A DNA stretch of 40,135 bases from a virus (IMGVR_UViG_2547132278_000018), one strand, 5' to 3'. Counted from the first letter of the stretch, positions 3,686 to 9,809 are shown. The notes: a model not told the origin generated them from the letters alone. Translations and numbers: made by a program.

Positions 3686-4047
3686 TATGCTCCAGCCTCC
3701 GGTGCTTTTGGCATTACTGCCCAGTGAGTGATATTGACGTTTTCAAGGTCCCCTACCTGAAATGTCCACTGCCATTCTCCGGTTTCTTTTTGTCCCCAGG
3801 TGTACCAGAGAGAACGCCAGCCAATTAGCCAGCCTTCTCCGTTAGCATCGAATAACAAAACACTTTCATTTGCTGGTGGCAGTTCAGTTGACACTGGTAT
3901 TACTTTGTTTTCCTGTGCTGCACATTTAGCTTCAAGCGCATCGAATTTACGCACCAGGTATTCAGCATCTGTTTCATTCACTTTCAGATCTCGCGGTACA
4001 CATCTCCCACGAAGAAACCCTTCCATTTCGAAAACATTCATGCGCAT
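3685..4047 (-). CDS. Hypothetical early-left protein
   Basis: 120-aa ORF with RBS; W-rich; tightly coupled to flanking genes. Confidence 0.6.
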   Translation of the reverse strand: MRMNVFEMEGFLRGRCVPRDLKVNETDAEYLVRKFDALEAKCAAQENKVIPVSTELPPANESVLLFDANGEGWLIGWRSLWYTWGQKETGEWQWTFQVGDLENVNITHWAVMPKAPEAGA

Positions 4048-4574
4048 TTGCGTAACTCCGATAACTCGTTAAAGCGTTCCATAAACATCCCGTAGGCATG
4101 GCCCGGTGCCAGTGGAATCACGTTGAACATCTCTGTTGCCGGGATACCTTCCAGTACAGGCCAGAAAGAGCCATCATCAAGCCCGAGATCGCGGCGTTCG
4201 GTTGCCAGCATGATGAGATCGGCATATTTCACGGGCGTACTCATAACTGGGGGTAACCTGTATTTCTCACGGATTACGGCGTCTATTTTTTCTTCCATTT
4301 GTTTATAGTCAGGAAGAAGGCGTTTCAGTGGTGCGGGAATGTCCTGACAATACGCTTCTGTTGCATCATGCATTAACGCTTCGAAAGCAAACTCCTGCGG
4401 TACCAGCTGGCTGCAAAGCACCGCATGTTGGGCGACGCTGTAGAAGTGTGAAAGATGCCCTGCAAAGCGACAGATATTTGAGAGGGAAACTGCGATATCG
4501 TTAATCACGATGTCGTCTTTATTTATCCTGTCATAATAAAAATGCTTCCCGGAAAAAGTTTTAATAAATGACAT
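4038..4574 (-). CDS. HD-domain phosphohydrolase (YfdR-like 5'-deoxynucleotidase)
   Basis: Start chosen at MSFIKTF with GGAGA RBS; H..H and HD motifs (SVAQHAVLCSQ, LMHDATEAY). Family from recall. Confidence 0.7.
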   Translation of the reverse strand: MSFIKTFSGKHFYYDRINKDDIVINDIAVSLSNICRFAGHLSHFYSVAQHAVLCSQLVPQEFAFEALMHDATEAYCQDIPAPLKRLLPDYKQMEEKIDAVIREKYRLPPVMSTPVKYADLIMLATERRDLGLDDGSFWPVLEGIPATEMFNVIPLAPGHAYGMFMERFNELSELRKCA

Positions 4575-4701
4575 TTTGTTCTCCACGTATATGCGCTGCA
4601 CCGCGCTGAATTCTGGTAAAAGGAAGCCCTCACCATCCGGTGATTATTGAGTTAATTACGTTTCCATAAATGCCCCCGCAGGGGCATTTGCAGTAATGAA
4701 A

Positions 4702-5526
4702 TCAGGCGGTGAAAGTACCAATAAAGGTTTCGACTTTGCTGTCTTTGAATTTCTCAACAAGCAGATCACGAAATTCGTTAGCCATTTCTTCCTGCACTGC
4801 TTCCAGCTGAATAATGCGCAGAACCAGTACAGGGCGATCACCAGTGATAATGCTGAGTCGTAATTTAAATGGACGTTCTTTCAGGCCTTCAAACGGAACG
4901 CATTTAAATTCAAATGCCACTGGCATAATGTCTTTGGTCTTCGCTTCGACAGACTCCATCAGGGAGCGTTTGCCGCTGAAGTCATTGTCTTCAAAATCAG
5001 CAGTCTGGTTCGCTTCAATTGTGATTTTACGGACTGCCGCAGCCGCTTTTGTTGCCTGAATGGCGTCACCATTAGCATCAAAGCCCACAAGGTAGTCGGC
5101 CCAGTCTTCAATCCATTCTGCCAGTGACTTCTGGGAGTTACGCTCGCCGTTAACAGACAACAGAGCAGAGAACGGTGCTGTCTTTTTCAGTTTGAGAGTG
5201 GCGGTGTTATCTGCGTGACCTGGTTCATCAATAGTACCCAGGTTAAGCACACTGACGGCACGTATATTATCAGCATCGATAAAGCAGCGGGTGCCTTCAT
5301 CTGCAAGATCTTTAGAATAACGGGTAAAGTCATCGATGCTGGCAGTGGAAAGCGCACCACGGAAACGGAAGCGATTTAAATTAAATTTTTCCAGATCATG
5401 AATGCGGAAATTCTCAGGCAATGCCACAGCATCGGCACCAATCTTACTGATAATTTCATTAACACCCTGAGCAGAAATAAGGGCATGGATTTGATTAATT
5501 GCGGTTGCGTCTAAGTTCTGAGACAT
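4702..5526 (-). CDS. YfdQ-like (DUF2303) prophage protein
   Basis: 274 aa, [17 protein letters not shown]...; GAGGAC RBS; recalled as the CPS-53 YfdQ family. Confidence 0.65.
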
Positions 5527-5591
5527 AATAAGTCCTCACTATATAAAGATATTCAGTGATGAGATAAATAATCAGTTAATTAAAAACGATA

Positions 5592-5954
5592 TTAACGACC
5601 TGCTGCGCGGAGTTTTCCGTCAGGTTTACCGGCAAGAGTCAGTAACTGTCCCTGGTCTTCCTGCAGAATAGTCAGGCGACCACCGCGATTGACATACATC
5701 GGCGTTTCGGTGGTGTCTTCTTCGGAAATTTTCCCGCGGTTAGTCGGGCGAACATATGAGAGTTTGTGTTTGATTTTCACACGGTTCTCATCAAATGGTT
5801 CGATTTCCAGGTTGAGTGAGACCTTACCTTTGGTTTTCGTGTTCATCACACCGGAAGCGACTTCACTGAGAACTGCGCCGATTTTGGTTTCAAATACGCC
5901 GCCGTCCAGCTCCCCGATAAATGCCTGCACATCAGTACTGCGTTCGCTAGCCAT
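5592..5954 (-). CDS. YfdP-like prophage protein
   Basis: Start taken at MASERSTDV (GAGGAG RBS 9 nt upstream); the longer track ORF (to 6272) has an Arg-rich non-protein-like extension. Confidence 0.6.
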   Translation of the reverse strand: MASERSTDVQAFIGELDGGVFETKIGAVLSEVASGVMNTKTKGKVSLNLEIEPFDENRVKIKHKLSYVRPTNRGKISEEDTTETPMYVNRGGRLTILQEDQGQLLTLAGKPDGKLRAAGR

Positions 5955-6002
5955 TTTGCTGCTCCTCATCATATCGACCCTGCAAGGACGATTAGTTTCT
6001 CC

Positions 6003-6091
6003 ACAAAACAGAGAAGAACACCTGCGGTGGCAGCCGCCCGGATGGATTGGGTTATGAGCCCGTCGTCCGGTGATGCTCTTCTCTGTTTTGT
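6003..6091. repeat. Perfect 15-bp inverted repeat (ACAAAACAGAGAAGA / TCTTCTCTGTTTTGT) enclosing 59 bp, in the leader of the early-left operon
   Basis: Read directly: arm 1 at 6003-6017, arm 2 at 6077-6091, exact reverse complements. Confidence 0.7.
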
Positions 6092-6392
6092 AAAAAGGAC
6101 GGTACCAGCCGGAAGCAAGGGTACAAACTGGTACCGCCAAGACTACATACAGCATAAAGTTGTGGTGCCGGGTGCCTCCCGGTGCCTGGCGAAGGTTGCA
6201 CACCAGACGGGTGGGTATCCACAGAAGGTCGACTGTCAGCCTCAACCTTAACCCGCGTGCGCTGAGCCGCATTCACCACAACGCTAAGGATTCTCTTTGG
6301 TTGAAAATACTTAGCTGTTATGTGCCTGTCTTTTCACCACTTCAGGCTCGGTGGTATCTTGGTGTTTTCATATAGCCAAGAAGGAAATAGTT

Positions 6393-7934: not shown

Positions 7935-8523
7935 ATCGATTAACAGAAACCACAGAACGATGAGGCTAACCGTGGGTAAGCATCACTGGAAAGTAGAAAA
8001 ACAGCCTGAGTGGTACGTGAAAGCTGTCAGAAAAACTATCGCAGCGTTGCCGGGTGGTTACGCTGAAGCAGCTGACTGGCTGGATGTAACAGAAAACGCA
8101 TTATTTAACCGCCTTCGTGCCGATGGCGATCAGATTTTCCCGCTGGGATGGGCAATGATTTTGCAACGTGCTGGTGGAACTCACTTCATTGCTGACGCTG
8201 TGGCGCAGTCTGCAAATGGCGTCTTTGTGTCTCTTCCTGACGTCGAGGATGTGGACAACGCCGATATTAACCAGCGCCTGCTGGAAGTCATTGAACAGAT
8301 TGGCAGTTATTCCAGACAGATTCGTTCGGCAATCGAAGACGGTGTGGTGGAACCGCATGAGAAGACAGCAATTAACGACGAGCTGTATCTCTCAATTTCG
8401 AAGCTGCAGGAGCATGCAGCACTGGTCTACAAAATCTTTTGCATTTCAGAAAGTAATGACGCCCGCGAGTGTGCAGCTCCGGGCGCCGTGGCGTGTCGTG
8501 ACTGTGGAGAAACTAACGCATGA
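7915..8523 (+). CDS. YdaT-like / CII-position regulatory protein
   Basis: About 200 aa from [13 protein letters not shown]; overlaps the cro stop; family from recall of rac ydaS-ydaT. Confidence 0.6.
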
Positions 8524-8698
8524 ACAGTTTAACAACACACTACCGTCGCTCGCAACTGATTGCGCTTCCTGTACCGGGTGGAAAAGCGAAGGTGGAGTAT
8601 TGCTATGCAGTTAATGTACCAGGTGACAGGGAAATTGTAACCCACAGCTTTGCAGAGTGGGCTGTGGGTGATTTCAACCGGCAGAAGGAGACAGTCCT

Positions 8699-8878
8699 TT
8701 GCGACAAGTTAACCGCTGGTTCAAAGATCACTACGGAGTGCCCGTCAGAGTCATTCGTTGGGAGCCGGAAACACAACGGGTTATCTACCTCCGCGAAGGT
8801 TATGAGCATGAATGCTTCAGTCCGCTCGAACAGTTTCGTCGTAAATTCAGGGAAATAGAGGTCGGTCATGAGCACTAA
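8699..8878 (+). CDS. Small protein (59 aa), TTG start, not in ORF track; possibly the 3' part of a frameshifted gene starting at 8520
   Basis: AAGGAG (8685-8690), 8 nt, TTG; translation [59 protein letters not shown]; stop overlaps the start of the replication gene. Confidence 0.35.
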
Positions 8879-9809
8879 ATTAACCGGCTATGTATGGGAT
8901 GGTTGCGCTGCATCAGGCATGAAGTTATCCAGCGTGGCAATTATGGCCCGCCTGGCTGATTTCAGTAATGACGAAGGTGTGTGCTGGCCATCAATTGAAA
9001 CCATTGCCCGTCAGATTGGCGCGGGGATGAGTACCGTCAGAACGGCTATCGCACGGCTGGAAGCAGAAGGCTGGTTAACGCGTAAGGCGCGTCGCCAGGG
9101 TAACCGCAATGCGTCGAATGTTTATCAGCTTAACGTTGCGAAGCTTCAGGCAGCGGCATTTTCTCAACTGTCAGATTCTGACCCGTCAAAATCTGACGCA
9201 TCAAAATCTGACCCGTCAAAATTTGATGCGTCGAAATCTGGCAAAAAAGCGGGTTTTCACCCGTCAGAATCTGGCGGGGATCCGTCAGTAAAATCAAAAC
9301 ATGATCCGTCAGATAAAAAACCTTCTCGTCCGGACGCTTCGCAACCGGACACGCAGACGGCTGAACAGGATTTTTTAACTCGCCATCCTGATGCGGTTGT
9401 ATTCAGCCCTAAAAAGCGCCAGTGGGGGACGCAGGATGATTTGACCTGCGCACAGTGGCTCTGGAAAAAAATCATCGCCCTGTACGAGCAGGCTGCCGAA
9501 TGTGACGGCGAGGTGGTTCGTCCCAAAGAACCGAACTGGACAGCTTGGGCAAACGAAATTCGCCTGATGTGTGTACAGGATGGGCGTACTCACAAACAAA
9601 TCTGCGAGATGTACAGCCGCGTCAGCCGCGATCCGTTCTGGTGCCGTAACGTGCTCAGCCCGTCGAAGCTGCGGGAAAAATGGGATGAGCTTTCCCTGCG
9701 CTTATCGCCGTCCGTCAGCACGTACACCGAAAAACGCGAGGACCCGTACTTCAAAGCCAGTTACGACAACGTGGACTACAGCCAGATCCCGGCAGGATTC
9801 AGAGGGTGA
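8868..9809 (+). CDS. Replication initiator (lambda O-like, HTH N-terminus) containing in-gene iterons
   Basis: 313 aa; N-terminal winged-helix-like region; central low-complexity linker SDPSKSDASKSDPSKFDASKS encoded by DNA iterons. Confidence 0.75.
   Translation: MSTKLTGYVWDGCAASGMKLSSVAIMARLADFSNDEGVCWPSIETIARQIGAGMSTVRTAIARLEAEGWLTRKARRQGNRNASNVYQLNVAKLQAAAFSQLSDSDPSKSDASKSDPSKFDASKSGKKAGFHPSESGGDPSVKSKHDPSDKKPSRPDASQPDTQTAEQDFLTRHPDAVVFSPKKRQWGTQDDLTCAQWLWKKIIALYEQAAECDGEVVRPKEPNWTAWANEIRLMCVQDGRTHKQICEMYSRVSRDPFWCRNVLSPSKLREKWDELSLRLSPSVSTYTEKREDPYFKASYDNVDYSQIPAGFRG
9169..9320 (+). repeat. Iteron array (about 15-bp units CCGTCAAAATCTGAC / GCATCAAAATCTGAC and degenerate copies) - candidate phage origin
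   Basis: Four tandem 15-bp units at 9181-9240 plus degenerate copies on both sides, inside the initiator ORF as in lambda ori. Confidence 0.6.

Follow-up and report, generated by a model that had tools for sequence, protein, structure and literature searches.

Related systems

Overlapping genes are a known arrangement in phages. In the Rz/Rz1 spanin genes of phage lambda, Rz1 is embedded in the +1 frame of Rz, and in phage operons, stop and start codons that overlap or abut are sites of termination-reinitiation (translational coupling). A related arrangement is described here for a virus DNA of 40,135 nucleotides (nt) (IMGVR_UViG_2547132278_000018), which is called the window and to whose whole length all coordinates refer. 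Judged by its sequence, the window is an e14-like lambdoid prophage, in which a cI-like repressor, cro, ymfL (in the cII position), an overlap of ymfM with a gene of the DUF4222 (RgdR) family, and the replication initiator gene (rep) follow one another. The overlap region probably consists of two genuine genes read out of frame with each other, the first of which has a stop-free tail under selection, and not of one frameshifted gene. Both genes are individually known already. What appears to be new is that the open reading frame (ORF) of a conserved module of ~59 residues is kept open, in a different frame, over an RgdR-family gene up to the start of rep.

The closest described counterpart of ymfM is b1148 of Escherichia coli K-12 ("cell division inhibitor YmfM"), the same gene of 112 codons with the same neighbors (ymfL 5′ and the replication gene 3′) and with only 3 nt differences across the ORF. 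The ymfM gene of e14 was described as SfiC, a division inhibitor inducible by the SOS response (Ansari et al., bioRxiv 10.1101/2020.11.19.390815). Expression of the ymfM "open reading frame" from pBAD24 led to filamentation and loss of Z-rings, and a ΔsulA ΔymfM strain indicated that ymfM contributes to SOS filamentation; the preprint describes no frame-specific mutants (10.1101/2020.11.19.390815). To this picture, the present analysis adds that the first ~59 codons alone behave as a conserved protein and that the rest is the +1 frame of a gene that is absent from the K-12 annotation.

The characterized DUF4222 member is RgdR (ECs1581), a 99-amino-acid (aa) prophage regulator of LEE (locus of enterocyte effacement)/type III secretion and of motility in enterohemorrhagic E. 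coli (EHEC) O157:H7 (PMC3378721, PMC10877973). It activates LEE1 and type III secretion, represses motility, and binds DNA nonspecifically in vitro (PMC3378721, PMC10877973); an RGD motif at residues 20–22 was reported to be functionally important (PMC3378721). Residues 17–68 of RgdR match the Pfam family PF13973 (E 2.1e-23), and the DUF4222 protein of the window aligns with the RgdR core at 41% identity over 49 residues (BLASTP, E 3e-11), by which the two proteins are judged homologous. They share the DUF4222 core, a small size, a location on a prophage, and a gene position directly 5′ of and overlapping a replication gene. In contrast to the window protein of 59 aa, RgdR carries N- and C-terminal extensions and the RGD motif, and it resides in a P4-like element where no read-through ORF crosses it and its +1 frame contains five stops. 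No RGD motif occurs anywhere in the 59-aa window protein; the counterpart of RgdR 20–22 is V-N-R at residues 4–6, by ungapped extension of an alignment that itself starts at RgdR residue 24. In the EHEC record (L436), RgdR (ECs_1581) occupies positions 3720–4019 and the P4-type primase ECs_1582 positions 4016–6148, an overlap of 4 nt. Likewise, the DUF4222 gene is the last small gene ahead of the replication initiator in the window, in Serratia BZS1, and in Elizabethkingia EKP1.

Architecture of the ymfM/DUF4222 overlap

The overlap is built from the following elements, given 5′ to 3′.

8506..8509, plus strand: Shine-Dalgarno motif GGAG of ymfM, 10 nt ahead of its ATG (read from the sequence).
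8520..8858, plus strand: ymfM ORF with ATG start, 112 aa, and stop TAG at 8856–8858 (orthologue of K-12 b1148).
8520..8698, plus strand: conserved N-terminal module of YmfM, ~59 codons (ratio of nonsynonymous to synonymous differences, pN/pS; stand-alone homologues; phrog_20047).
8669..8671, plus strand: TGA, the last stop in the DUF4222 frame 5′ of the DUF4222 start (sequence).
8685..8690, plus strand: Shine-Dalgarno motif AAGGAG of DUF4222, with 8 nt between motif and TTG (sequence).
8699..8878, plus strand: DUF4222 (RgdR-family) gene with TTG start, 59 aa, and stop TAA at 8876–8878 (PF13973; RefSeq coding sequence, CDS).
8699..8855, plus strand: Ser/Thr-rich tail of YmfM, that is, the +1 frame of the DUF4222 gene (stop-free, sequence unconstrained).
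8856..8870, plus strand: junction with rep, consisting of the ymfM TAG at 8856–8858, GAGG at 8858–8861, and the rep ATG at 8868–8870 (sequence).

The DUF4222 gene lies in the −1 frame relative to ymfM (8699 − 8520 = 179), and the two genes overlap by 160 nt. At the 5′ end, the ymfL stop TGA (8521–8523) shares bases with the ymfM ATG (ATGA), and the GGAGAA..ATGAA context of this start recurs in divergent loci. At the 3′ end, the ymfM TAG abuts GAGG, which stands 6 nt before the rep ATG, and the DUF4222 stop TAA overlaps the rep start by 11 nt. Because of the TGA at 8669–8671, DUF4222 has no longer N-terminal extension in the window.

A preliminary description, made from the sequence alone, had already noted much of this layout: an ORF at 8520–8858 that starts protein-like and then becomes Ser/Thr-rich; AAGGAG, 8 nt, and a TTG at 8699 opening a 59-aa product; a stop of this product that overlaps the replication-gene start; and two plausible halves in different frames. 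All of this was borne out, with Ser and Thr accounting for 12% of residues 1–60 and 29% of residues 61–112 of the 112-codon ORF and with the offset being −1. Between the two readings offered there, that of two small genes was right, with the twist that the first gene lacks a stop ahead of the second and runs through it out of frame. As in Rz/Rz1, a small gene lies within another one in a different frame in a lambdoid phage, each gene having its own start. There, however, both overlapping sequences encode functional parts, whereas here the outer sequence is only barred from stops in the overlap; nor is the inner gene fully contained, since it passes the ymfM stop at 8858 by 20 nt.

Two modules under selection in their own frames

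Selection was measured as pN/pS among nine representatives of divergent lineages, giving 36 pairs. Over the first ~59 codons, the ymfM frame has a pN/pS of 0.53, compared with 0.95 and 1.01 for the remaining two frames; over the DUF4222 segment, the ratio is 0.38 in the DUF4222 frame and 1.31 in the frame of the ymfM tail. Among 103 close variants, the polymorphic columns are distributed over the three codon positions as 6/6/17 in the N-terminal module and as 10/5/17 in DUF4222. Each module is thus genuine coding sequence that evolves under purifying selection in its own frame, whereas the amino acid sequence of the tail is unconstrained. The AlphaFold2 (AF2) predictions accord with this result, the predicted local distance difference test score (pLDDT) being 83 for DUF4222 and 31–39 for the tail.

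Existing annotations conflict over which of the two genes is present. The region matches 2,700 of the 5,426 complete E. coli genomes, mostly at an identity of at least 95%. In the RefSeq genome that is identical to the window, 8699–8878 is a "DUF4222 domain-containing protein" (WP_001250269.1), and 8524–8698, from the ymfL stop to DUF4222, carries no annotation. The same feature set, DUF4222 without ymfM, is found in the 30 RefSeq matches listed. In the K-12 record, by contrast, ymfM is annotated and DUF4222 is not. Thus the TTG ORF, which the preliminary description had called unannotated, indeed has no entry in K-12 but is a RefSeq CDS with exactly these boundaries. The ambiguity met there is a real conflict between annotation schemes, each examined scheme omitting one gene.

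The K-12 scheme amounts to an explanation in which ymfM alone is real and the DUF4222 match arises by chance from the frame overlap. Although K-12 annotates ymfM alone and under an experimentally based name, we consider this practically negligible given the properties of the DUF4222 gene. The TTG ORF matches DUF4222 (PF13973) with E 8.6e-19 and 67.3 bits (cut-off 27), that is, 40 bits above the cut-off, its residues 2–53 covering model positions 3–52 of 53; with such a score, it is not a chance ORF. DUF4222 relatives, 59–70 aa in length, begin at the residue that corresponds to TTG here (MRQVNRWF, MRELNRWF, MAEVNRRF). The start position is conserved with varying codons (TTG 115, ATG 70, and GTG 35 in 220 distinct loci), and a purine-rich GGAG-like motif precedes it in all 17 divergent representatives. 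Purifying selection over this segment is strongest in the DUF4222 frame, and RgdR provides a characterized homologue. In Serratia BZS1, Elizabethkingia EKP1, and EHEC Sp7 (RgdR), DUF4222 occurs without the N-terminal module. Its confident AF2 model shows a small SH3/KOW/Tudor-like β-barrel; a Foldseek search of this model against the PDB returned generic small barrels of the SH3/KOW/Tudor kind (best E 0.03), matches which point to no specific function.

The RefSeq scheme corresponds to the converse, namely that DUF4222 alone is real, 8524–8698 is a noncoding leader, and ymfM is a spurious long ORF. This would fit with the empty interval left by the Prokaryotic Genome Annotation Pipeline (PGAP), with the lack of a ymfM feature among the 30 matches listed, and with the result that the 112 aa of YmfM match no Pfam or NCBIfam family. 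Against it stand the constraint over the first ~59 codons in the ymfM frame only, the enrichment of polymorphism at third codon positions there, and the ymfM ATG that overlaps the ymfL stop with GGAG 10 nt upstream, as well as protein-level homologues that reach down to about 38% identity and include stand-alone genes of 59–68 aa in other genera. It is therefore regarded as hardly plausible. Full-length relatives found by protein search have 46–67% identity and 111–117 aa; among the relatives, residues 1–58, with the stretch Y.YAV.VPG, are well conserved, and the remainder is Ser/Thr-rich and poorly conserved. Residues 1–112 of 112 match phrog_1170 (112 aa; E 7.6e-70), and phrog_20047 (63 aa) matches the N-terminal module alone; these two PHROGs and phrog_1343 (DUF4222) are all families of unknown function.

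The module also exists by itself. It forms a stand-alone gene of 63 aa immediately 5′ of rep in Providencia phage PSTRCR_117lys and an ORF of 65 aa in Citrobacter phage phiNP, where a rha gene lies between module and DUF4222. In a search of 1.84 billion proteins, stand-alone modules of 59–68 aa, other genera included, are found among the 56 representatives. In two genomes, one of Entomohabitans and one of Atlantibacter, DUF4222 is mostly deleted, and the end of the N-terminal ORF is still at the rep start. In the AF2 model of YmfM (mean pLDDT 50), residues 6–66 reach a pLDDT of 51–66 and are predicted to adopt a β-β-β-α-α arrangement.

In HMMER searches, residues of about 19–50 of YmfM (window 8574–8669) repeatedly match large repeat proteins that contain DUF7507 or Listeria-Bacteroides repeat domains, an example being P0157 with 13 such stretches. 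These matches probably reflect a shared β-hairpin motif and not homology.

Absence of stop codons from the tail frame

Scans with YmfM alignments over genome, viral, and metagenome contigs returned almost only loci of 96–100% identity, with a bias to intact ORFs, and were replaced. Loci were instead gathered through DUF4222 alone and then pooled with the rest, in order to avoid this bias, and divergent loci were added by look-ups of divergent proteins. An upstream ORF enters DUF4222 in the +1 frame in 276 of 284 distinct DNA contexts. None of these 276 has a +1 stop until 157 nt or more past the beginning of DUF4222; the +2 frame across DUF4222 always closes within 5–128 nt. The upstream ORFs are of three divergent N-terminal types, all of which read through DUF4222; a profile comparison shows types A and B to be homologous (hhalign probability 96%, E 2.8e-9). 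The preliminary description had raised the case that the 8520 frame continues as real protein to 8858 in homologues; it does continue open in every lineage, yet it is not conserved as protein.

The codons of DUF4222 were compared with a synonymous randomization, in which the DUF4222 protein was fixed and codons were drawn from the usage of the window itself. The probability that the +1 frame is open by chance ranges from 0.04 to 0.18 in each of 16 lineages, and synonymous differences among nine of these are near saturation (mean pS 0.73). Codon choice at Val is particularly informative. Before a codon with first base A or G, Val is encoded by GTT 365, GTC 238, GTG 34, and GTA 0 times, and before C or T by GTC 149, GTG 64, GTT 16, and GTA 12 times. 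Stop-making Val codons (GTA or GTG before A) are absent at prone sites, whereas GTG and GTA make up 32% at nonprone sites of the same genes. The two conserved Val-Ile sites carry GTC or GTT for Val in 186 of 186 and 185 of 185 unique genes; in the controls phiNP, BZS1, and EKP1, GTG-AT at a Val-Ile pair creates TGA. Five of the six DUF4222 genes without a read-in ORF contain two to six stops in the +1 frame (phiNP six, BZS1 and its relative L347 three, EKP1 two, RgdR five). Selection on synonymous codons of DUF4222 thus keeps the tail frame stop-free.

The same data bear on the explanation that both genes are real and the open tail is an unselected by-product of the amino acid and codon composition of DUF4222, with ymfM functionally ending at about residue 60. 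It would agree with a tail that is unconstrained and predicted to be disordered, with per-lineage probabilities of openness that are not tiny, and with the Yersinia phage YeP3, where the upstream ORF stops but the DUF4222 core is nevertheless free of +1 stops. Nevertheless, composition leaves unexplained that every read-in locus is open, that stop-making Val codons are missing only where they would close the frame, that the two Val-Ile sites are uniform in contrast to controls with GTG, and that stops are frequent where no ORF reads in. An unselected by-product is hence considered improbable.

The stop of the read-through ORF is close to the ATG of the next long ORF in 260 of the 264 distinct loci that have an identifiable downstream long ORF, lying 3–9 nt before this ATG in 204 and overlapping it by 11–14 nt in 56. 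Lineages of the L169 type are among those whose outer ORF extends past the end of the inner DUF4222 gene.

Neither a disrupted nor a frameshifted gene

The −1 offset between module and DUF4222 is found in 221 of 223 distinct adjacent loci, including lineages that are only ~46–64% identical in protein. This speaks against the other reading of the preliminary description, according to which a single ancestral gene was inactivated by an indel near 8670–8700 and is now a pseudogene. Two protein-like halves in different frames and a few sequences with in-frame versions would be expected from such an event. A pseudogene would, however, not be expected to retain one offset down to about 46% protein identity, to show purifying selection on both halves, to have both halves as separate genes elsewhere, or to be present, mostly at such high identity, in so large a share of the complete E. 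coli genomes. A disrupted gene is thus barely credible.

Same-frame fusions at >90% identity come from a single contig each (P0031, P0053, P0060, P0065) and were treated as indel variants or sequencing errors. A further in-frame fusion, P0152 (L188), was discarded, as the replication gene of its contig is fragmented, which is typical of an error-rich assembly. In the type-C lineages L189/L190 (1501–1845, 114 aa) and L209 (1036–1407, 123 aa), the module lies in the DUF4222 frame with no stop between, and both retain an open +1 frame across DUF4222.

A related explanation is one gene with a programmed −1 frameshift after 8671, yielding a fusion of the N-terminal module with DUF4222. The frame relation is indeed −1, natural in-frame fusions occur in the two type-C lineages, and rare fusion ORFs are seen in e14-type sequences (P0060, P0065), the latter being the single-contig variants of >90% identity mentioned above. 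Visual inspection of 8672–8720, a range that includes the DUF4222 start, and of the junction alignment revealed no slippery heptamer of the form X XXY YYZ, and the 17 representatives share no conserved junction sequence. In L175 and L184, the stop in the DUF4222 frame is only two codons before the DUF4222 start. Moreover, DUF4222 possesses a conserved start and its own Shine-Dalgarno motif, and a frameshift would not explain why the zero frame remains open over a further 52 codons. Programmed frameshifting is accordingly rated as very improbable.

A model for translation through the overlap

In the preferred reading of two overlapping genes, the first is ymfM, whose functional part would be the ~59-residue module translated from the ATG overlapping the ymfL stop. 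The second would be an independent 59-aa DUF4222 protein with its own AAGGAG and TTG start and a predicted SH3-like β-barrel. As ymfM has no stop after the module, ribosomes would run on through DUF4222 in its +1 frame and produce a Ser/Thr-rich tail of about 52 residues whose sequence is dictated by the codons of DUF4222. They would then terminate at the TAG 8856–8858, abutting the GAGG and ATG of rep.

As to why the frame is kept open, it is tentatively proposed that ribosomes coming from ymfL/ymfM are delivered to the rep start by termination-reinitiation and, in passing the DUF4222 start, modulate its initiation. This reason is preferred because the stop/start geometry at both ends of ymfM is what termination-reinitiation needs: the ymfL stop and ymfM start form ATGA, and the ymfM stop abuts GAGG and ATG of rep, a placement that is kept in the 260 of 264 loci. 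The difference to the known coupling systems, predicted here from the sequence, is that the coupling ORF would have to pass over an entire further gene in another frame. Another possibility is that YmfM needs its disordered tail, e.g., for turnover or localization.

Several points weigh against the two-gene reading with a selected tail frame or against its proposed reason. In YeP3, the upstream module stops directly at the DUF4222 start (ATGA); a frame can therefore stay open even where no ORF reads in. Because of their common descent, the loci are less independent than their counts suggest, and the randomization rests on about 9–16 lineages. The two type-C lineages with in-frame modules imply that some phages tolerate or make use of a fusion protein. 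For the N-terminal module, confidence in the AF2 model is low. Since rep has its own GAGG motif, coupling may be dispensable. Finally, a literature search gave no ribosome-profiling or peptide data for either frame.

Implications for the SfiC assignment

By coordinates, the ymfM ORF expressed from pBAD24 holds the Shine-Dalgarno motif and TTG of DUF4222 together with 53 of the 59 codons, and hence the complete Pfam domain, and the ΔymfM deletion also removes most of the DUF4222 gene. Because clone and deletion both include the two genes and frame-specific mutants are not described, the published SfiC assignment fits either protein and does not discriminate between them. A bolder proposal, which we put forward as speculative and rather doubtful, is that SfiC is, or requires, the nested 59-aa DUF4222 protein, and that hundreds of lambdoid prophages keep a frame whose only requirement is to be stop-free and which carries ribosomes to rep. 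No paper linking ymfM with DUF4222, describing the overlap, or pairing ymfM with ribosome profiling was found in a literature search of incomplete coverage. The locus offers a clear natural case in which selection acts on whether a reading frame stays open and not on the sequence it encodes. It bears on the origin of overlapping genes and on how gene finders handle long ORFs that lie over conserved small genes.

Neighboring genes and further observations

The overlap is flanked by two genes.

7972..8523, plus strand: ymfL-like gene in the cII position (Pfam Phage_CP76; NCBIfam phage_reg_YmfL, E 1.9e-49; RefSeq CDS).
8868..9809, plus strand: replication initiator, HTH_36/DnaD_N-like, in the position of the O protein (Pfam; RefSeq "helix-turn-helix domain-containing protein").

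The RefSeq CDS at L001 2573–3124 corresponds to window 7972–8523 and thus to the ymfL-like gene. An Rfam search of the window gave no match, and a scan of 8200–9000 for promoters and terminators gave nothing above chance.

In deep sequencing of K-12, an abundant cis-antisense small RNA, ECS003, was detected opposite the ymfM ribosome-binding site (PMC3175480). Its length is 116 nt by sequencing and about 70 nt on Northern blots (PMC3175480). The counterpart of ECS003 would be at about 8500–8530 of the window on the minus strand, at the ymfL/ymfM junction, where a simple promoter scan gave no σ70-like site.

In the records of three further phages, the DUF4222 gene (about 1201–1380 in each) was missed, and composite CDSs are given in its place: SfV orf37 (L429 1052–1888), ST64B sb41 (L430 1058–2215), and the "Rha protein" of PhiR40_1 (L435 1052–2203). 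Each composite consists of a type-C N-terminal module, the +1 read-through of DUF4222, and a Rha-type protein, the read-through being recorded as the N-terminus of the Rha-type protein.

Within the rep gene, the window contains five to six direct repeats of 15 bp at 9171–9245 on the plus strand, of the form TCAAAATCTGAC(C/G)C(G/A) and with internal dyad symmetry. They encode a low-complexity stretch, DPSKSDASKSD, of the replication protein and look like origin iterons inside the initiator gene, as in lambda O.

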